From assembly GCA_034780895.1 (NCBI GenBank), contig JAUZTB010000064.1, forward strand, positions 113,182,645 through 113,246,644: DNA of 64,000 nt. The letters are read 5' to 3'. This stretch comes from Rhynchobatus australiae. Its lineage: Eukaryota. Shown here piece after piece: positions 7,241 to 43,624 of the stretch. Made by a program: the position numbers and the translations under genes. Under the pieces are notes generated by a model that made no database searches, was not told the DNA's origin, and worked only from the letters and a program-made list of their open reading frames with translations. Numbering within the stretch: the stretch's first letter is position 1; every line of letters begins with the position of its first letter.

Positions 7241-7989
7241 CAAGTTATGGTAGTGTGTTGATGAGCTGCTACAGTGGATCATAGGCAACATTTTCCATAA
7301 TTGATATAGTACATTGATTACATCAGCAACAGCAAATACAAGAAATGCCAAGCAAGTTGGACAGCATCTTTTTGAAGAAAATCACTTGAAAGGAATTGAA
7401 TGATTTATTTTATATTTGCAGTATTCACATTTTGATTGTGGAGTCCAGATCATAGCATTCTAACAAACTTGCAAATTCACATTTTTCAATACCCAGTCAG
7501 TTTAACTCATTGTTATAAATATCCTATGTTGTGATATCAACAATGATCTGGGCTGTTCAGGGGTATGCAATTTAAGAGGCTAAAGACAATCTCCCATTTA
7601 TATCTACCAATTTTTATTTGCCATTCTATAAAGACATTTGAAATGCCAGCAAACCATAAAGAATTCAAAGCTGTTTTCTTTGGCAATCTTGAATTTGTTA
7701 GAATGGGATGGGTATATGTTTATCTGTTTCTAGTTTTAGATGTAGCAATTGGATAAAATATGCACAATTGTATCTGGAACCTAGGGAGCTAAACATTTTA
7801 AATTTATTAATCTACATTTTTAATCTAAACTTAATTCTTATAGTCACAGAGCAATATAGCATGGATACAGGCCCTTCAGCCCAACGATTCCATGCCAACC
7901 ATGGCGCCCACACAGCTCATCCCAATTTCCTGCGCTCGGGCCATATCCCTCTAAGCCCCACCCCTCCATGTAACTCTCCAAGTGTTTCA

Positions 7990-10555
7990 TAAATGATACT
8001 ATTGTACCTGGCTCAACCACTTCCTCTGGCAGCTCACTCCTTATACTCACCACTCTCTGTGTGGAAAAAGTTGCCCCTCAAGTCCCTTTTAAATCTTTCC
8101 CCTCTTACCCTAAATCTATGCCCCTTAGTTTTAGACTCCCCTACCCTAGGAGAAAGATTGTTACCATCCACCTTATCTATGCCTCTCATAATTTTAAACA
8201 TTTCTATAAGGTCGCCCCTCATTCTCCTACATTCCAAGGAATTGAGACCTAGCCTGGCCAGCCTCTCTCCCTATAACTCAGGCCTTCCAGTCTTGGCAAA
8301 ATCCTCATAAATCTTTTCTGCACTCTTTACAGTTTAACCACATCTTTTTTATAACATGCTGACCAAAACTGTACACAGTACTCCAAGTGCAACCTCACTA
8401 ATGACTTATCTGCAACTTAATGTCTTAACTCAATGTCTCAATGCCCTGACTGATGGAGGCCAGCATGCTAAATGCCTTTTTCATCATACAAGTCCTATGC
8501 TGGCTTGACTTTCCAAAGTGCATCAACTCACACTTATCTGTATTGAAATCCATTTGCCACTCCTTGGCCCACTTTGCTAACTGATCAGGATCCCCCTGTA
8601 ATCTACAATAACCTTCTTCATAATCAACAACGCTTACTAATTTTGTGTCATCTGCAAACTTACTGATCAAGCTTTGTGCATTTGCACACTAATCATTTAT
8701 ATGAATAACAAGGGTCTCAACACCTGCAGCACACTACTAGTCACCAGCACACCACTTCTGAGAAACAAACTTCACCCTCTGCTTCCTACCTCTGAACCAA
8801 TTTTGAATCTACCCAACTAGTTGTCCCTGGATTCCATGGGATCTAACCTTCTAGACCAGCTTACCATATAGGACTTTGTCAAAGGCCTTGCTAAAGTCCA
8901 AATAGACAACATCCGCTGCCCTACCCTCATCTACCTTCTTGGTTACCTCTTCAAAAGAAACTCCAAAAGGTTTGTCAAGCACGACTTCCCGTGCACAAAG
9001 CCATGCTGACTCCTCCTAATCGGACTCTGTCTATCCAAATCCTGGTAAACCCTGTCCCTCACAATTCCCTTCAGTAACTTCCCCACTACTGATTGTCAGG
9101 CTGACCGGCCTGTAGTTCTCTGACTTGTCCTTGCTACCCTCTTAAACAACAGAACAATGTTAGCTGCCTTCGGGAACTTCATCAGTGGCTAACAATGAAG
9201 CAAATATCTCTGCAAGGGCCTTTGCAATTTCTCTGCGAGCCTCCCACAAAGTCCAAGGATATACTCTGTAAGTTCCTGGGGATTTACCCACCTTAATGCA
9301 CTGTAAGGCTGAAAATGCCTCCTCCCTGGTAAAATGCATTTCCTCCAAAACATCACCATTTGTTTTCCCCTATCTCTTGAACAACCATGATTTTCTTCTC
9401 AGTAAGCACCGAGGAAAAGTATTTGTTGAAAAATCCCTCCCATCTGCAGCTGGAGACATAGTTGGTCCTGCTGTTCTCTAAGGGAACCTACTCTCTCCCT
9501 GGTCACCCTTTCAATATAACTATAGAATCTCTTGGGATTTTCCTTAAGCTTACCTGCCAGATCCATCTCATACCCTCTCTTTGCCGTCCTGATTTCCTTC
9601 GTAAGTGTATTCTTAATCTTTCATGGTCATCAAGGGATTAATTTGTCCCTCACCTCCTAAACCCAATGTATGCTTCCTTCTTTTTCTTGGCCACAGCCTC
9701 AATGTCTCTTGTCAGCCAAGGTTCCCTAAATTTGCCAGGTTTACCCTTCACCCTAACAGGAACATTCTGCTCCTGGACTCTTGATAACACACTCTTAAAA
9801 GCCTCCCACTTGCCATTCGCTCCTTTCCCCTCAAACGGGCTCACCCAATTGACCTCTGTTAGATCCTGCCTAATTCACCCAAAGTTAGCCCTGCTCCAGT
9901 TTAGGACCCTAACCTGTGGACCTGTCCTATCCTTTTCCATCACTATCTTAAAACTAATGGAATTGTGGTCACTAGAGCCAAAGTGCTCCCTGACCACCAC
10001 CTTGTTCCCTAAAAGAAGGTCCAGTATTGCACCCTCCCAAGTAGGTCCCTCTATGTACTTTCCTGGACTCATTTCACAAATTCCACCCCATCCAGGCCCT
10101 TAACACTCTGGGTAGTCCAGTCAATACTGGGGAAAGTATAATCTCCCACTAATACAACCCTATTATTGTTACAACTATGAGCAATTTCTCTACACACCTC
10201 CTCCTCAAGTTCCCACTGACTACTGTGGGATCTATAATACAGCTCCACTAGAGTGACCTTCCCCTTCGTGTTTCTAAGTTCTACCCATATGGCCTCACTG
10301 GACAATCCCCCAAGAACGTCATCTCTAATTACTGCTATTACATCCTCCCTTATCAAAAAGACAACACCCCCACCTTACCTGTACCTCTGTCATGCCTGAA
10401 GCATCTATATCCTGGGATATTGAGCTGCCAGTTCTGCCCTTCCTTCAGCCAGATTTCGGTTATGCCTATAACATCCCAATCTCAAAGCCAATCCACGCTC
10501 TGAGTTCGTCTGCCTTACCTGTTAAACCTCATGCATTGAAATAAGTGCAGTTTAA
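7990..10555 (-). pseudogene. CR1 ORF2 (APE endonuclease + reverse transcriptase), disrupted
   Basis: Starts LNCTYFNA*GLTGKADELRAW; ORF-track fragments 10069-10356, 9875-10072, 9650-9844, 9160-9348, 8425-8670, 8034-8237. Confidence 0.9.
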
Positions 10556-10716
10556 CTGAGTATTCTTTTCCCTGCTTTTAGTGTCCCTGGCTATCCTGAT
10601 TACTAAATGCTCTCGCTACTGCTTTATTCCATGACTTGCTCCTGCTCAGAGTTAACCAAACCACCCCCCACCCCTCACCCCTCCCCCCAGCCCTGGCCAA
10701 TCTAGTGTAAACCCTC

Positions 10717-11690
10717 TCATGCAGCATTAGCAAACTTCCTTGCAAGGATATTGATCCCTCGCTGGTTCAAATGCAATCCATCCCTCTGGTACAGGTTGCC
10801 TCTACCCCAGAAGAGATCCCAAAAATGGTCCAAGANNNNNNNNNNNNNNNNNNNNNNNNNNNNNNNNNNNNNNNNNNNNNNNNNNNNNNNNNNNNNNNNN
10901 NNNNNNNNNNNNNNNNNNNNNNNNNNNNNNNNNNNCCAGCTTCTCAGCCACGAATTCTTCTGGCCTATCCTTCTATTTCTGATCTCGCTAGCACGTGGCA
11001 CTGGAAGTAATCCAGAGATCACCACCCTCGAGGTCCTGCTTCTTAACTTCTTACCTAACTCCCTAATTCATTCTGCAGGACCTCATCCCTAGTTCTACCT
11101 GGGTCATTTGTACCAACATGTACAATGACCTCTGGCTGTTCGCCCTCCCCCTCGAGAATTTTCTGCAGCCACTCAGAGACATCCTTCACTCTGGCACGGG
11201 AGAGGCAACGGACCATCCTGGCCTCTCTTCTGCAGCCACAGAATCTCCTGTCTGTCCCTTTCACTATCGAGTCTCCTATCGCGATCACCCTGTCTGATTG
11301 CACCCTTTCTCTCTGAGCCTCAGAGCCGGTCACAGTGCCAAAGACCTAACTACTGCTGCTAGCCCCTGAAAGAACATCCCCCTCAACAGTATCCACCTGT
11401 TAGTGAGGGAAATGGCCACAGGGAAACCCTGCATTGACCGCCTACTCCCCTTACTTCTGGGGGTCACACACCTAACTGCAGCCTGTACCTTGAGTGTGAC
11501 CACCACAGTAAAAGTCTCAGCTGTGATGTTCTCAGCTTCCCAGATGATCCTGAGTACATCCAACTCCAGCTCCAGTTCCTTGATCTGGTCTGTTGGGAGC
11601 TGCAACTGGGTGCACCCTACAGATGTAGTCATCAGGGAGACCATGAGGTTCCCTGACTTCCCACATCTTGCAGGAGGAGCATTCCACTGC
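10717..11690 (-). pseudogene. CR1 ORF1 (coiled coil + SGNH/GDSL esterase), disrupted
   Basis: IAIGDSIVKG, VIVHVGTND, VISGLLP and DGLHLN SGNH blocks; LQL..QIKELELELDVLR coiled coil. Confidence 0.9.
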
Positions 11691-12259
11691 CCTAATCAAA
11701 GTTTATTTTTTTCCTCTTATAACAGCATTGGTGAGAATTTTCACAATTTTCTATGGAGATCATAAGATTCCTATTTTACTTTTGTACACAACCTAATTAG
11801 ACAAATTTGAGGTCCAGGTGNNNNNNNNNNNNNNNNNNNNNNNNNNNNNNNNNNNNNNNNNNNNNNNNNNNNNNNNNNNNNNNNNNNNNNNNNNNNNNNN
11901 NNNNNNNNNNNNNNNNNNNNNNNNNNNNNNNNNNNNNNNNNNNNNNNNNNNNNNNNNNNNNNNNNNNNNNNNNNNNNNNNNNNNNNNNNNNNNNNNNNNN
12001 NNNNNNNNNNNNNNNNNNNNNNNNNNNNNNNNNNNNNNNNNNNNNNNNNNNNNNNNNNNNNNNNCTTAGGGGATACTGTTGAAACTTCTGAGTTCCCTCT
12101 GAGCCTGGCAGCCTTCCCCTAGCTTTCCCTTTTCCTTCCTTCCTCAATATTTCACTAATAGCTCCCTTGTTCCTGAAGAACAAAACTAGCAGTTAGTGGC
12201 CATTGAAGGAGAATCATTAAAAACAGGAATTGAGTAATTGTAAACAGCCTACCCATGCT

Positions 12260-12715
12260 CTCTAGCCCAAGGCACAGCAATTCTGTATTTTCTGACAGAC
12301 AGTAAAGGAAAAAGCTGAGCTTTGTAGACTTGTGATGGAATTGTAGAATTCTAGGGGCCTGTGTCCCAGGATCAAAGCCTGATTGTTTGTGAGACTCCAT
12401 GAGGAGTCCGTCATGAATACAGAAAAGGGATTAGAACAGAAAAAAATGTGTCACTCGATGTTAGCTGGTATTTCTTGTACGGGCTGCTGATAAATTGTTA
12501 AATATCTCCCCTTCATAAAGCAGTTACAGTCTTGTTCATTTCCTGTTCTTGCAACATTTTCCCTCCACTTGAAAGTCTTCATATTGACACCTGCAAAATA
12601 TGTATCACCATTAAGATTTAATTTTGAATTCTTCCCTTTTTTTATATAATAGTGACTAATCTTTTGAAGCATAGTTCTTATGACACTTTTGTATCCTGCT
12701 TTCTTTCCCATTAAT
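12260..12715 (-). pseudogene. Restriction-like endonuclease (RLE) domain remnant
   Basis: With frameshifts: IQK(C)H..MLQKISHYYIKKG (RHN motif; R>C fits CpG decay), VT.LYEGEIFNNLSAARTR/KKYQ (DVT..FE...L..AR..K..KY), SSWSLTNNQALILG (GSW...N...L..LG). Confidence 0.6.
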
Positions 12716-13259
12716 TTTGTTTAACAACAAATAGTGCAACTTTTTTTTAACATGAGACTTGATTGTGAACAAACAGAATGCAAATGATGTTTGGTAATTG
12801 GGTTACATCAGACAAAGTTGGAGAACAACAAAACGTCAGAAAGGCTTCCTGCATTTGAAACATTACCAATTACTTTGGCAATGCACACAATTATTTGTCT
12901 AACTTGGGGTATAGATGGGGATGACATGTTCTCTCAAGTAATTGATAATTATTAATAAAACAAATTTTTAAAAGTTACTGGGTTAAACGCAATTTTAATT
13001 GCACCATTAAATAAGAACAGAATGATTTTGAATGATCTGACATAAAATGCTTTGCCTAATAACCTCTAATGATATAATTTAGAATCACCACCCTGTTCAA
13101 AATCTTCTTTTGGCTTGCCTCTATCTCCGATACCTCCTATAGTTCTACTATACTCAAATTCTGTATTCTAGCTATTCTGGCTCCCTTTGCATCCCTTATC
13201 CTTGAATATATGTTGAGAGGTTTGGCATCAAGATCTGCATACTCTACATACTTAAAGCA

Positions 13260-13487
13260 GTACCCTCCCTCCCCCACAACTTCCTCTTTCTCCAGTCCTG
13301 CACACACTACAACCCCTCTGATTCTCCCTCTCACTCAACTCCATCCCTCCCAGCCCTCCACTTTATCCTCACATTCCCCCTTTCTCCCTCTCTCCACTCT
13401 GCATTCCCCTTCTCTCTACCAATCTTTCCTCTTCCTGTTTCCACTGTCCCCTGCTCTCCATTCATTTTTCTCTCTGCCACTTTCCTC
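13260..13487. repeat. CT-rich low-complexity tract
   Basis: Pyrimidine-dominated sequence running into an N gap. Confidence 0.8.
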
Positions 13488-13587
13488 NNNNNNNNNNNNN
13501 NNNNNNNNNNNNNNNNNNNNNNNNNNNNNNNNNNNNNNNNNNNNNNNNNNNNNNNNNNNNNNNNNNNNNNNNNNNNNNNNNNNNNNN

Positions 13588-13730
13588 CCAGCTGGTACAA
13601 TTCCGAATGGGATTTTCACGACTGGGACCTTTCCCATTAGGTATGGTTCTGACTGGGAACTTCCCAACAGATACCATCCCAACTGGACATTCCCAACAGG
13701 ACCCTTGCCAGTGGGCACTGCCCAGGCTGA
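13588..13730. repeat. Degenerate 15-bp tandem repeat, about 9 units, consensus near CCAACTGGGACNTTC
   Basis: cgactgggacctttc, ctgactgggaacttc, ccaacagataccatc, ccaactggacattc, ccaacaggacccttg. Confidence 0.6.
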
Positions 13731-13894
13731 GTTCTTCTCAGCAACTATTTTTGCCAATTCTCATCCCTAAGCAGTTGGTTGAGTTAATTCCAAATACAAG
13801 GACGTCAAACCTGAAGGAAGTATCTGCTGAAATATTTTGTAGTTCCCTTGCTGATCTACGTTCCCTTCAAATGCAAGACTTCAACAGTGCAATC

Positions 13895-14065
13895 CTTGTC
13901 TGGATCCACCTATCACCAGCCAGCTCTTGCTCCATCCCTTCCCCCCACCTTTTTCTACTGGCCATCTCCCCTTTTCTTTGCAGTCCAGATGAAGGGTCTT
14001 GACCCGAAACGTCGACTGCCTATTTCCCTCCTTAGATGCTGCCTGACCCTCCAGCACCTTTTGCA
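13895..14065 (+). mobile_element. Penelope-like pseudo-LTR
   Basis: atccacctatcaccagccagctcttgctccatcccttccccc...gatgctgcctgacc; same family as 1-168. Confidence 0.8.
13981..14018 (+). ncRNA. Minimal type I hammerhead ribozyme motif of a Penelope-like element (core variant CAGAUGA)
   Basis: cagtc-cagatga-a-gggtc-tt-gaccc-gaaac-gtc-gactg: stem I cagtc/gactg, stem II gggtc/gaccc, GAAA, GUC cleavage triplet. Confidence 0.65.
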
Positions 14066-14329
14066 TGTACATCTTTAACATGTTTACTGATTATTAGGGA
14101 GGGGTGAGTGGGAGAAATAGTTACTCGCCTGCACAAACTCAGTAATTACATTAATACTAAGGCATCCATATGTCTATAAACAATGCTGTTTATCTGTCTT
14201 GAGGTGAGGACTGGGTCCACTGTTTGGCCATAATTTGTCAGCAGTTTGTCAAGTAAAGCCTCTTTGTTAATCACCTATGGATGTCTTGTGAGTGGCATGT
14301 GAAGCGCACTTATTTGCAGTCTTTGTTTA

Positions 14330-14750
14330 GCAACCCTGCCCACTTGGCTTGAATATAAGAGACATAGGTATAAAAAATAGATCTAGCAAAAAGCAGAGAG
14401 AAAAAAAAACAAAGAGCGTTTCAACTGCAGAAGTGGAAAGAAATAGCTCATGAAGGCTGTAGCTTTAGCCTTATTTGGAGAGATCCAAATTTGGTTGCAT
14501 TAAAAAAAACGTATCATTTTGTTGATAATGTAAAACAGGTGATCTGAAACAAACAGGTAAAACAAGCAATCCAATATATTGCTGCTAAGCTAGATAATCT
14601 GATAAATATTGTATAATCTGCACTCTACAACAATGATTGTCAAACATATGATAATTTCAGTCTGCTAATTTGCTATGATTTGATTTTTTTCACATTTCTG
14701 GTCAGTTCAGAGACATTTTCAGACATTGTTATTGTTTGTCAAATCAAGTA
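14330..14750 (+). pseudogene. Linker and CCHC-knuckle remnant of the same element, inverted
   Basis: LQKWKEIAHEGCSF (W....QG..F), QYIAAKLDNL (A.K.R.N.L), SSETFSDIVIVCQ (ET..HIL..C). Confidence 0.45.
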
Positions 14751-15384
14751 TTGTTAGTTATGGCTTGGCACATTGGGTATCTCAGTTATTGAAGAAAAAG
14801 CTTCAAACAAATGCAACAGGCTTGGTTTTATAATAAATTGCATCAAAATTGGTGATGGCAATAATATACCTGCATAGTCATCCATTGCCACTTATAGATC
14901 TCCTAATCCAGGGTTCACACCTCTGACTAAATTTTTCCAGTACATGTTCACAAACAGTTCTATTGATCATTCTTAAATTAAAATATATGACTTTATAAAA
15001 TATATTGTTGACACAGAGTTTTATTGCTTTTTAGTTAGGACTTTGGAAGTGTTTTTCCAGTCACTATTGGTAAGAGAGGGAAAAAATTCTGCCTGTTGAG
15101 GACAGCATGTGTTCAACCGTAATGTTTTACATCTTTGTATTCTTTAGAGATCAGTAATAATTATCACTAACATAATCAAGAAATACTACATCCAATTTAA
15201 ATTGGAAAAGTACAGAAAACTGTATATGATTATTTTTCACCAACAGAAAGGAGATTTACTGAGCAGTTAAAATTTTCACTAATTTTCTTACAAAGCTGTT
15301 TAAGAATTAGTTTATTGTCCATCTCTCCCTTGACATCAATCCTGAGAACCGAGTCTCCAACAATGAAGCAATAAGCAAAATATT

Positions 15385-15530
15385 ACAAGAAAGGGGAGGC
15401 ATGTAGGGGGTGGAAGTGGGGACAGTGGAAAACAAAGAAGGGAAGGAAAGTAGGGAAGCAGGGAATGAACGAGGAGAGGAGAAAGCGAAGGAAGGAAAGA
15501 AGATAATGTTCGCAAGTTACAGAAGAGAGG
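15385..15530. repeat. GA-rich low-complexity tract
   Basis: Purine-rich run. Confidence 0.7.
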
Positions 15531-15805
15531 AAATTTATAAAACCGAGATGACAATTGATGAACAAGGAATGATGTTTCTTAATAAATTGCCAATTAAATA
15601 ATACAAAATAAATTCATTAAACTCCTGAGGCATTTGCAGATCGTCATTAAACAAACAGCAGTAAGGATGCTCCAAAAGATAAATAAATACTTCTAGTGGT
15701 AAATCAGTAATTCAACAGGCAATGTTGTAGCAAATTGTGAATCAGAATTAAAGAAAATAGAGATTTGATAAATTGAGGGCAAACAGAAAATGACTGTGAA
15801 ATGTG
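15530..15805 (+). pseudogene. RT subdomain 6/7 and thumb start, inverted
   Basis: YKTEMTIDEQGMMFLNKLPIK*YK..FIKLL/GI (KYLGI-like) and ESELKKIEI**IEGKQKMTV (L..I..S.L...QK). Confidence 0.45.
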
Positions 15806-15814
15806 TCTGTGGTG

Positions 15815-16060
15815 GGTGAGACAGTGGTGTGGCTAGAAGAGCTGCTATCTCACAGCTCCCTCGACCCAAGTTCAATCCTGACCACTAGAGCTTACTGTGT
15901 TGAATTTGCAATGTTCTCCCTGTGACCCAGAGACTTTCCTTTTGGTCCCACATCCAAAGACATGTGGTGGGTTATTTGACCACTGTAAATTATCTCTAGT
16001 GAATAAGCAAGTGGTGGAGTTTGGGGGGAGTTGATAGGATTGGAGAGAAATAAAATGGGA
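15815..16060 (+). mobile_element. V-SINE (HE1-like) inserted in the fossil RT
   Basis: gagctgctatctcacagctcc...caagttcaatcctgacc...cccacatccaaagac. Confidence 0.7.
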
Positions 16061-16149
16061 TTTATTTGCCAGATCCTTGTCCACTCACTTTACCTCTTGA
16101 TATCCCTCCATAGTCTATTTTTAGCCTCTTCACAACTTACTTTCCTACC

Positions 16150-16770
16150 CATCTTTTATTGCCTTCAGGCTGATGATTAATGGGCAATGAATATCACTCA
16201 GCAAAGAACAAATTAAGGAAATGTTGGTGAGTGCTTGACACCATTGCACTGGAAAGTTTCTGATCTCTTTCTGATTGTGAATCAGCACTTCAGAAGAAAA
16301 GCTGCCTCTAAGGGAAAGAAACTGGCCGTATAATATCAGTGAAAACAAAATTACAATGTGACGATTCCACATTTCCATTTGTAAAACGCACATTCTGCTG
16401 TATAAATTGGTTCTTGATTTAAAACCAAGAAATTTAAACTGATCACTAAAGTTTTGCTATTCACAAAGTGATACCAGATGACATTGTGATTTAGATAAAC
16501 ATATAAAAGGACACATATTTATTACAAGCCTGACCATCTTAACATTCATTCTGACACATTGATGAGAATTTTCCCGCTGAACCTGACTTTATTTTCCCTA
16601 TTTCTGTTTCTATTGATTATTGGGTATAGATCTAGTCATATGGCAAGATTTCTTATCTGTGTGATCCAGCACAGCCATCAGAAGGTTCCAGAGCTGAGTT
16701 TCTGTGTTTAACCATTTCACATCACAGAAATCTTTGTGCCAGATGGAGAAGCTGAGGTCATTTAACTTGA
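16150..16770 (-). pseudogene. Reverse transcriptase subdomains 0-4 remnant
   Basis: KLND/SASPSG (K..SAPGPDG), SCHMTRSI, FSDQFKFLGF, FTDIIR (D..KAF), NGVKHSPTFP*FVL (GVKQG.PLSP.LF), PLIISLKAIKDG, all in the expected order. Confidence 0.6.
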
Positions 16771-17683
16771 ACATCATTCACAATGCACAAGGGGAGTGAG
16801 CAGAATGCAGTGATTTATTGTAAATCAATCCAATGCTTTTAACAGCTAGAAAAGTATAATCATTAAAAATATCAGTATTGCAATATTAAACTGCAATTTA
16901 TAATCACACCATGAGTTGAAAATGATTATTAATCACTTGACAGGCCACTTAGAATGTTAAAGAAGTTGATAATGCTGCTTTAAATTATTTTGTAATGCTA
17001 TAATGTTTATAATGAACACAACAACAGAAAATACTTGGTTTTTGCAGATATCATTTAATAAATTGGTCAAAGTTGTATTTTTTAATTGTTTTTATATGAT
17101 AATTTTACATTGTTTTACTTTGATATTTGCTTTGTGAGTCATGTCTGATTTTCTTAAGTGTTGGAAACAATTCTTTAATGATTGAAAACTCTTCTATACT
17201 AATTGTATTCAAAGAAGAGGTTTCAGAAGTATGAATGATTGTTTAGGTTATAATTACCTTCTGTCCAATCAATAGGTTTTCTCTTCCATTTTTAACATCC
17301 TTAAAAATGTAATAGTATGCATCTATATACGTAATCTTCCAGTTTTTATATAGGTTGTTAACAATTGAACTGGGCTCTGAATACTTTAATACATCTGCTA
17401 AGATGGTTAAATTTATTTTCTTCTATGTGACTCTTCAATCTTTTTCTTTCTTTATTCCCATTTTACACTATTTTAAACACTCCATAATTTCATCTGTTAA
17501 TTGCTGTATACTCAGTGAGGTGCTTGAAATCACATTTATTAAAATCCTTGAGAATGATTTTGCTCTTAATAGATTTTTTGTGGAACCTTACAATTGTTTT
17601 ATTATTTGTCATTTGAGAAGCAGTCGATACAGGATATTTTATTTTTGGTTGAGTCTTTGTTGCAGTAAAATCTGCATTCTTGA

Positions 17684-18498
17684 AGTATGTCCACATGAAA
17701 TGCTGTCACGTAGGTAGGCAGCATATCCTACTTAGTCATGCTGTTTATGACGGTACTCCACACCTGTTGTCTGTATCATAGGAAGTTCCATGGGAATTTA
17801 TGCAATTCCTGGCATTGCTTATTGTTGTCCTGGGAACATGATGTACCCAAATATATAAAAATCTGTGGCACTGGAAGCAATCAACATAGATCGTTGAAAA
17901 TAATTGGCATAATTCGGGTTTTATCTCTAAGGGGCTGATCAACAAATGTGATCACATATCTCAGCTGAATGTATAGCAATGAAAGAGAATATTATAGTAT
18001 CTTTAACATTATCAAAGAAGCAAAATTGATAAAAGCAGACTGAAAGGTCTGGCATAAGGAGGGATGGATTCAAGATTATGGACAAGAAATTCTTCTGCAC
18101 CAGAAAAGACTTGTTAATTAAATAAGAGACTTGTTTTGTGTGAAGACTGCCTGGTGCAAACTCCATTGCACATTAGGTCTGAGTTAGGAGTTGCGATTGG
18201 GTGGGGGTGGGTTGATCATAATCTGCCCGGTNNNNNNNNNNGAGCCACAGTAAGGGCTAAGTTTGTATTTAAAGTAAATGCAGCCATGTGTGCAGGACCC
18301 ATAGGTGATTTTGCATATTTTCTTAAAGAACCATTAAATATGTTTTTCAATGAAATTCTATCATATCGTGCACATAAGTGTTTTAAGAGATTTAAGATAA
18401 ATGCAGTAGAAAAAGATTTTTTTTTACAGAGACGGCTAAGCTATGAATTTAGTTTGAAAATCTGTCAAAATAATAGTTTAATTCCAGTGTTTCTAAAA
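17684..18498 (-). pseudogene. Ubiquitin-specific protease (USP/peptidase C19) domain remnant
   Basis: Cys-box-like FRNTGI/NYYFDRFSN*IHSL (18440-18498), QVFSGAEEFL (18081-18113), CQLFSTIYVDCFQCHR Zn-ribbon (~17862-17912), His-box-like KQHD*VGYAAYLRDSISCGHT (17684-17746). Confidence 0.6.
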
Positions 18499-18704
18499 TG
18501 AAGATATACCTACATGATGACTCCAACAGTATTTAAAAACTGTATTTATCNNNNNNNNNNNNNNNNNNNNNNNNNNNNNNNNNNNNNNNNNNNNNNNNNN
18601 NNNNNNNNNNNNNNNNNNNNNNNNNNNNNNNNNNNNNNNNNNNNNNNNNNNNNNNNNNNNNNNNNNNNNNNNNNNNNNNNNNNNNNNNNNNNNNNNNNNN
18701 NNNA

Positions 18705-18790
18705 ATATGACACCTGGCATATGAGTGTTAGCAGAAGGGTACACGATGCCTGCTGGGAAAGTACTTTTGGCATTTTGCACTGTCAGTGTT
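18705..18790 (-). pseudogene. N-terminal CCHC zinc finger remnant (R2/Utopia type)
   Basis: With frameshifts: QC..CQKYFPSRH...SANTH/YARC; another Cys pair (SRCWDCDRL) at ~19015-19040. Confidence 0.5.
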
Positions 18791-20149
18791 TAGAGGAGAG
18801 CAATTTAATCATAGATCATGACCATTTGTAGAAAATGACCAATTTAATCATAGATCATTACTGCAAGCAGGTAAAACATAATAGCCTTTGACTCCTACCG
18901 AAGTTGTTACTAGAAAACTAAAGACAAGGGGCTAACTGAAACACTTGGTCTGCAGTTTTATCCTTCTGGTCAACCTGTTCATTTCTACATATAATATAAT
19001 CATTATGTGTAATAAGTCTGTCACAGTCCCAACACCTGCTTTGTTTTAATGAGTGGGATTGAGAACACAATTCATCATTGCCTTTTATGTTGTTAGTCGT
19101 ACACTGAGTCATATAAACTGAGCAAGACTGAGCATGCAACTAAGTATATAAAAGGCAATACATTTCACTTGATATCCATCATCTATAAGTTATTTCAGTT
19201 GTTTAATGAGTCAGTTCAATTATTACTGATGTTCAAGTGTTAGTCTTGACACCAGCTGGTGAGCTTTAACAAAAAGAGTTCCTAGACCACTCTATCTTTA
19301 TAAAAATGAAGTTGCAACTAACTTGAAGATTCTACTAATGTCAGGATTAGAGCAAATATATTCAAGCAAAAGTAAACAAAATCATAAAAGGAAGAACTGT
19401 TCAATTGTTGATTTTTATGGCTACTAAGTTGAATATCTTCAATCATTGAACATGGAATTTTTTCTCTTTCTTTTCCTCAGTCATCTTGTCCGGAAGATGC
19501 TACTTTTTTATGGTGGATTATGATTGTAGAATAGTAGCTCTTGTAATGGTATCTTGTGTGAGTTTAGTCTGTGAGAACTGTTGGGAGAACTTGAGTATGG
19601 CGACTGTCAAAACAAGCCCAGTACTGCACTTAATTGTTGCTCCTAAGAATATAATTGTTGGCTGCTGTTCTTGGACAGAAATTAGAACCATGAACCCTAA
19701 AGGAGTTTGAAACTCAATTTGAATATGTTGGAAACTCTCAACAGGTCAGGCAGTATCTGTGAAAGCATAAATAGAGTTAACACTTCAGTTGAAGACCCAG
19801 CATTAGACATGAGAATATGAGAAAACAAATTAGGCGCAAGTTGCAGAGAGGGTGGGGGAGGGAAAGATGGGTCAAAGGGAATATCTCTGATGGGGCGAGG
19901 CCAGGGTCATTGACGTGATCCAGTTGTTTACAAAACTGTTTGTTTAATAGATTAATGTGGGCATTCAGAGAGAAGGACAATGAACAAAAGGTCATGAAAA
20001 AGCTATACAATACAGGTCAGAGCTGTTTCTGAAATATGAAACCAAAAGGAGAGTGCTGGAAATGCTCGGCAGATCAGATCATTTTGTGGAGAGAGAAAAC
20101 CTAAGTTAATATTATGGGTGGATAACCTTGTATTAGGAATGGGCAGACC

Positions 20150-42310: not shown

Positions 42311-43624
42311 ACTGTGAAAGAAATAATCAAATTTGGATAAGCTTCTAAAGGGAGAGGTGAGATTAGAAGAAGTAGTGAAGCCAAAATTACTTGTAGATTA
42401 AGCACCAAGGGCAGTCATATGGAAGGTATGGAAATTATTCAGATTGGGGAACAAAAGGAGCAGATGAATGCACCAGAATTAGTTAAATTACAGACCCCAT
42501 TACACACACATGCAGGAGAAGAATGCCCAAAGTTTGTCTCTGGCAAGGCATTATCTGATGTGCAACTGACTTTCACAGAAGAACCAGCTTTTAATTATGC
42601 TAAAGATTCAAACTGAACATTATTTAAAGGGCCAGGCAGATCCCTCCAGCTGTCATAGGCCAGAGTGTTGCTCAACTGTGTAAAACAAATCTCGGTCAGA
42701 TTGACCTAAACCGGGGTCCCAGGCATGACAATATCTGGTGGTTTCAGCAGAAATCCCCCTGCCCAATCCCACCCCTTTAGAATTACATGGCTAGAAATAC
42801 TACAAAGAGAAAATTGTTCCATATTTGTCCGATCAAATTAGACCAGAAGGGAGAGTAAAAACACAAGTAAGACACCTGACAAAAGATGTGGTGCCCAAAA
42901 TCATCTCCACCTTTCTTCACAATTCTGCCCTTAAAGAGTTGCACCACAATACAAACAGCAACTCTTTCAGCAACTGGGGAGTGTTGGCAAGGAATGAGTG
43001 CATTCCTCAACAGGGGGGGTGGCAGAGTTCTGTCAGTGGGTANNNNNNNNNNNNNNNNNNNNNNNNNNNNNNNNNNNNNNNNNNNNNNNNNNNNNNNNNN
43101 NNNNNNNNNNNNNNNNNNNNNNNNNNNNNNNNNNNNNNNNNNGGCAAGGAATGAGTGCATTCCTCATCAGGGGGGGTGGCAGAGTTCTGTCAGTGGGTAT
43201 AGTAACCTGTACAGGATTATCAAGAATAATGCATGCGGAAGGAGCTTCTTTGTGCATAGGCCACTTGTAGAAGCACATTTGAGGAGCTGTCACTGAGGGC
43301 ATTTGTGTACTCTTTGAATGCCTGTACCTTTTGGAGCCCTGTAATGTATCCAGATGTCCTTAGCAAGTGAGAATGCAGAAATTGCATTAATCAAAAATCA
43401 AAGTTTCCTCACTTTGAAACTGGGTTTTCCTTGATTTCTGGAGTGTAGCAATGTGCAAGTGTCAATTGTGGCAGAGAGAGCAGGTGATATTTCTGAGAGT
43501 GAGGGTGATTCTGACTTTGAAAGCAGTGCAAGCACTTCTGTTTGTTTGCTGTTTGAGGTTTGTCTATGGACTCTGAAAGCCAAACTTGTTAGGATTATTT
43601 CCTAAGGTCAGAGCTGTGAGAAAA

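Follow-up and report, generated by a model that had tools for sequence, protein, structure and literature searches.

Deubiquitinase- and retrotransposon-like motif strings in an old AT-rich stretch of a Rhynchobatus australiae contig

Positions 12260-19100 of a Rhynchobatus australiae contig segment had been proposed, in an initial annotation made by reading the letters alone, to hold on the minus strand a fossil retrotransposon lacking long terminal repeats (non-LTR), with a restriction-like endonuclease (RLE) and, ahead of its reverse transcriptase (RT), a ubiquitin-specific protease (USP, peptidase C19). We followed up this proposal in the window, by which we mean the whole 64,000-nucleotide stretch of DNA analysed. 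The strings of residues from which the element was read exist; they have no second copy in the genome, are shared by one related species and score at background level. At a probability somewhat short of even, we tentatively favour the explanation that the stretch has no function and at no time coded for the proposed element: it would be old unique sequence carrying younger insertions, and motif chains of this quality are common in such DNA. Old, single-copy, AT-rich DNA would then have been broken by several younger repeat fragments, and the USP-, RT- and endonuclease-like strings would be chance resemblances arising from reading across stops and frame changes. Chance appears more likely than a dead element because the resemblance is no better than that of random DNA in almost every test, and we infer that the strings are without coding ancestry. 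Under any reading the stretch encodes nothing today. The strings are present, their significance is not shown, and the interpretation as a deubiquitinase-bearing retrotransposon is unproven.

On translation of the minus strand, every string listed in the initial annotation was found where it had been placed and in the order proposed, although most require a change of frame or read-through of a stop. Presence and order thus stand, whereas an excess over chance is not supported: the block chains described below lie at the null median. The strings, including those newly found here and those of the zinc finger (ZF), are as follows.

18705-18790, minus strand: zinc-finger-like string, in two frames and cut by an N at 18703
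18425-18498, minus strand: USP Cys-box-like string (FRNTG at 18497, NYYFD at 18478)
18066-18113, minus strand: USP 'QD box'-like string GAEEFL (GAEEFL at 18101)
17606-17900, minus strand: USP C-half-like strings (CxxC, His-box-like, FYCN.DS and.ILYR)
16160-16770, minus strand: RT subdomain 0-4-like strings (SASPSG at 16755, DQF at 16444, FTDI at 16343, GVKH at 16242)
14114-14350, minus strand: RT subdomain 6-7 and thumb-like strings of Utopia type, new (W.GL...KCAS.H and L...QK)
12360-12690, minus strand: RLE-like strings (KCH at 12688, YEG at 12517, KKY at 12476, SW at 12402)

The boxes of the USP domain are named here, and the motif patterns drawn up, according to general knowledge of these families. 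In the C-terminal half of the putative USP, LFSTIYVDCFQCH stands at about 17900-17862 on the minus strand, the His-box-like string on the same strand ends in GHT at 17692, and the newly found FYCN.DS and.ILYR strings lie just after it. As read, the putative USP carries tyrosine at the position of the catalytic Cys and at that of the first His-box His, so neither catalytic residue is present and the Cys, His, Asp/Asn set of peptidase C19 is not seen; a single base change would turn either tyrosine codon into the canonical one, a point that is no more than suggestive. Single-frame CCHC matches are absent from the stretch (flanking DNA holds about 0.3 matches per 6.8 kb strand), nor was a CCHC knuckle found upstream of the RLE-like part, where repeats occupy the DNA. 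The new Utopia-like strings comprise W.GL...KCAS.H at 14348-14297 and a thumb-like block ending at 14194, and within 14114-14350 the Utopia profile has its peaks for blocks 351-370 and 421-440, in that order. The lower boundary of 12260 given initially lies about 110 nucleotides (nt) inside a different repeat (12064-12370).

The case for chance rests in part on frameshift-aware comparison with profiles. For the RLE reference, a metagenome motif scan yielded intact Utopia-like open reading frames (ORFs), and a homolog search from one of these returned 316 proteins, 120 of them listed; 114 of the 120 were used to build the Utopia profile. The USP profile was built from 46 of 80 viral-contig loci together with host exon pieces. 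The profiles cover Utopia, R2, CR1, RTE and the USPs of giant viruses and hosts, with HERO, LIN, Togen, YURE and R4 outside them. Local alignment used a codon decay model at several parameter settings. The RT part scored 19.6 (shuffle mean 17.5, maximum 22.2) and the RLE part 18.1 (shuffle mean 16.8), with no gain for either alignment from looser penalties, while the USP score was reached by 8-31 of 100 shuffles. The positive control was a decayed CR1 long interspersed nuclear element (LINE) with ORF1, endonuclease and RT on the minus strand at 7800-11700 of the window, the RT of which gave 66.8 against the cross-clade Utopia profile (shuffle maximum 22.4). Its ORF1 is of SGNH type.

Chains of conserved blocks were scored against a null of 560 genomic and reversed controls, counting those at or above the target. 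The target was equalled or exceeded by 394 controls for the USP chain, by 241 and 422 for the two RT chains, by 390 (loose) and 228 (tight) for the RLE chains and by 462 for the chain of all USP boxes; the C-half-like strings are not significant as a block chain. Taken singly, the Cys-box-like block scores -2.4 bits, a value reached at 7% of null positions, and the GAEEFL block scores 8.0 bits, reached by 53% of 1.5-kb null chunks. Pairwise alignment to 116 single RLE proteins gave a best score of 27.3, under the best of 34.5 for reversed sequence. Among the forward scores, that of the RT6-thumb region (14114-14350) was reached by 50/240 genomic controls and 11/120 shuffles, and that of the RLE part by 68/240 and 27/120, respectively. 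The five forward tests combined gave p 0.16 against genomic controls before allowing for the fact that the windows were chosen by motif. No USP (PF00443) profile match extends from the Cys box to the His box, with the C-half alone weakly raised. A joint USP and RT path did outscore nearly all shuffles (the target was reached by 0-2 of 40), but its course does not coincide with the motifs and we read it as composition. On the plus strand a high USP score was likewise rejected as a composition artefact, and an origin of the RT-like part from the CR1 or RTE copies of this genome was set aside, as the score of 16160-16880 was reached by 69/100 and 33/100 shuffles.

The power of these tests was estimated by simulation from natural templates carrying 25% substitutions and 2% indels, and also at 35% and 45% decay. 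At 25% decay, 69-100% of runs exceeded the 95th null percentile and 0-3% scored as low as the target (RT, 0/30; RLE, 1/30; USP C-half, 0/45); at 35%, 0-20% scored as low. These values overstate the power for a distant lineage because the templates lie in or near the profiles. Since simulated fossils at 25% decay mostly passed, a real element at this locus would have to be decayed by about 35-45% or belong to an unsampled lineage.

Single-frame searches, in which stops were written as X and which have little sensitivity to heavy decay, agree with this picture. Twelve frames searched against Pfam at E up to 1 contained no UCH, RVT or endonuclease match, and the single row obtained, at E 0.18, was rejected as chance. 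Three frames of 16100-18800 gave chance rows only against the PDB, and one frame gave 0 matches among 1.84 billion representative proteins; two word-based homolog searches, with 0/1309 and 0/297 candidates scored, are weak evidence. An Rfam scan of the window at E up to 1 found no match and hence no U2 small nuclear RNA (snRNA) fragment, which weighs little because reptile Utopias have largely lost U2 specificity (PMC4640811). Three weak protein matches in the same genome and the one match of an RLE motif pattern search were judged chance; the QD-box pattern gave 94 matches, with no USP among the 30 fetched, several of which were CR1 ends in another frame. For this copy, then, no significant UCH or RT/RLE match was obtained, the outcome that the initial annotation had itself named as telling against its proposal.

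The initial annotation had also suggested collecting further copies for a consensus and a check of the single ORF, a course closed by the lack of a second copy in this genome. A DNA search of the 2.2-Gb genome with the USP-like and 5' parts returned their own locus only, on a 141-Mb contig. Queries with the RT-like, middle and RLE-like DNA matched elsewhere in the genome only within inserted repeats, no copy of which extends into USP-, RT- or RLE-like DNA. Two other loci showed long but weak similarity to the RLE-like part, which was at chance level and was rejected. The region, of about 34% GC, contains the following inserts and unique DNA.

17250-17700, minus strand: A-rich unique stretch (43% A on the minus strand), a linker under the proposed layout
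16880-17250, no strand assigned: AT-rich interspersed repeat of a separate family, between the USP-like and RT-like parts
16064-16157, minus strand: short CR1 RT fragment adjoining the RT-like part (3/100 shuffles reach its score)
15820-16060, no strand assigned: common short repeat adjoining the RT-like part (matched about 10 times within 534 kb of loci from the genome)
14765-15067, no strand assigned: old repeat fragment with matches elsewhere in the genome
12917-14050, no strand assigned: repeat fragments (12917-13165, 13260-13490 and 13890-14050) and purine-rich simple sequence
12064-12370, no strand assigned: different repeat, 70% identical to another genome locus over 245 nt

The A-rich stretch has no copy elsewhere in the genome. 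The repeat at 16880-17250 is matched 17 more times, across 16 loci and with 67-80% identity, and in no case does the copy reach into USP-like or RT-like DNA. In a related species, organism B, contigs align to 16143-16886 and 16865-18543 with about 95% identity, and this contiguous cover indicates that the USP-like part, the RT-like part and the repeat between them predate the split from organism B. Of 159 differences and 37 indels, 40 and 12, respectively, were listed; no listed one that was checked restores a canonical motif residue in organism B.

Set against chance is the reading in which the locus is a very old, Utopia/NeSL-like non-LTR element with a single ORF of ZF-USP-linker-RT-RLE layout, 35-45% decayed and split by later repeats. 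We consider this unlikely. It draws on the fact that all strings lie on one strand in canonical order over about 6.4 kb, with an RT6-7-like string between RT4 and the RLE and with strings after the His box, and that in organism B the USP-like part is contiguous with the RT-like part. The spacing of the RLE-like motifs, by arithmetic on their positions, is 3-14 nt off the Utopia profile at most. The position proposed for the USP is also that held by Ulp1 in nematode NeSL and Utopia-1_TSP (PMC4640811). On the other side, no part is significant once the choice of windows is allowed for, a second copy is lacking, and the USP-like and RT-like halves have a separate repeat between them. No USP occurs in the 120 listed Utopia-like proteins, nor in 16 RLE loci from metagenomes, nor in the R2-type copies of this genome. 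Such an element would moreover need many separate deletions, with about 100 codons missing within the USP and RT motif spacing that, as counted, differs in three intervals from that of Utopia, by 17-28 codons.

Several observations weigh against chance and deserve mention. A blind optimiser settled on the places read initially for two of three USP blocks and three of four RLE blocks, and the additional strings (post-His, KCAS.H and thumb-like) stand where the layout predicts. Stops on the minus strand are mildly depleted in the RT-like (15/258 controls) and RLE-like (19/424) parts. The forward score of the USP C-half was reached by 5/240 genomic controls and 0/120 shuffles, in a window chosen post hoc, and the five forward tests combined gave p 0.04 against shuffles with the same uncorrected choice of windows. 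In addition, 16-47% of runs simulated at 45% decay score as low as the target, so there is little power at that level. None of these weak signals is significant across the 64-kb window.

If the element were real, it would be a dead single-ORF element once copied by target-primed reverse transcription with its own RLE. That the locus is the last readable trace in the genome of an ancient vertebrate Utopia/NeSL-like lineage with a USP captured before the RT seems doubtful to us. By analogy with other transposon-borne deubiquitinases, the USP might have stripped ubiquitin off the element's own protein or off host factors where the element inserted, a role we regard as improbable to a like degree.

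A narrower alternative retains the RT and endonuclease parts as a real, decayed RLE-type (Utopia/NeSL-like) element and treats the USP resemblance as chance; it too seems to us rather unlikely. The stop depletion just described is strand specific and is absent from the USP-like part (47/126 controls), the Utopia and RTE profiles share their best, non-significant, RT0-1 register at 16757-16590, and vertebrate genomes are known to contain old fossils of an RLE element, Hero (PMC9004415). However, the whole-domain forward score of the RT is below the null median (127/222 controls), and the USP C-half is alone among the parts in giving a weak signal.

The remaining possibility, that the USP-like part is a decayed USP derived from a fragment of an HLE2 Helitron or from a processed host gene and lies beside unrelated DNA, is quite improbable: the C-half scores best of all parts, HLE2 Helitrons carry UCH domains (PMC11417382) and a repeat separates the USP-like from the RT-like part, but no host USP exon matches by DNA or protein, the locus is absent from the genome's 78 PF00443 matches, the N-half lies at or below the null (220/240 genomic controls) and the Pfam frames scanned contain no Rep or helicase match.

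Some features of the window stand apart from these questions. In the family of the 16880-17250 repeat, several copies show an AT-rich arm followed by a purine-rich and later a pyrimidine-rich tract, which suggests a long palindromic non-autonomous element. The plus strand of 17300-18500 has few stops (0/126 controls as low) and two open frames of 127-133 codons with no Pfam match; its T-rich composition fits the depletion in part, though not over 17700-18550. At 42783-43359 a short sequence is repeated on either side of a 100-N run and resembles an assembly overlap at a gap.

Among known systems, the closest are the Utopia and NeSL elements. Nematode NeSL and Utopia-1_TSP carry the N-terminal cysteine protease Ulp1. 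The RLE-like and KCAS.H-like strings are similar in style and spacing to those of this clade, and the proposed ZF-protease-RT-RLE layout is similar too; their protease, however, is Ulp1 (C48), whereas the one proposed here is a USP (C19) (PMC4640811). The host table of that paper includes no shark or ray. The window has no significant alignment to the 114 Utopia-like proteins. Neither a PF00443 nor a USP-profile match was seen among the 120 of 316 Utopia-like proteins listed, and an Atlas search with a natural Utopia-like protein as query, rather than the window sequence, returned no cluster with UCH. Three intact single-ORF Utopia-like elements were encountered on short metagenome contigs. 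The only RLE-bearing elements found in this genome are four of R2 type, which differ from the stretch in being young, with R2-like motifs, no USP and no similarity to it. The R2-like elements lie on chromosome-scale contigs with ordinary flanks, and in one of them the ZF and RT frames are open over a long distance.

A USP-bearing non-LTR family was not described in the literature searched, which was mainly open-access; Repbase, Dfam and the element set of Fell et al. lay outside this scope and may contain one. The excerpted portions of PMC13580325, PMC7599744 and PMC6431247 do not mention USP for non-LTR elements. The present locus, one dead sequence that is barely detectable, cannot carry a claim of USP capture, and it serves as a caution that AT-rich DNA yields by chance frameshift-crossing motif chains about as good as this one.

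Capture of a deubiquitinase by mobile DNA does have precedents. UCH domains occur in HLE2 (Helentron/Helitron2) elements (PMC11417382) and a transposase-C19 fusion protein in Trichomonas (PMC2836005); these are alike in the capture of a USP/C19 domain, but are DNA transposons rather than non-LTR elements. Transposon-borne VTD/OTU deubiquitinases have been proposed to protect transposition proteins (PMC9741609). Josephin (Dualen/RandI) or OTU domains are found on LINE ORF2 proteins, where, as proposed here, an N-terminal deubiquitinase is fused to a LINE RT; they differ in deubiquitinase class, in clade and in their hosts, which are algae and dinoflagellates (PMC13405545). If the proposed element were real, its USP would join Ulp1, Josephin and OTU as a fourth type of ubiquitin-family protease carried by non-LTR elements and would strengthen the view that these elements have repeatedly armed themselves against ubiquitin-based control.

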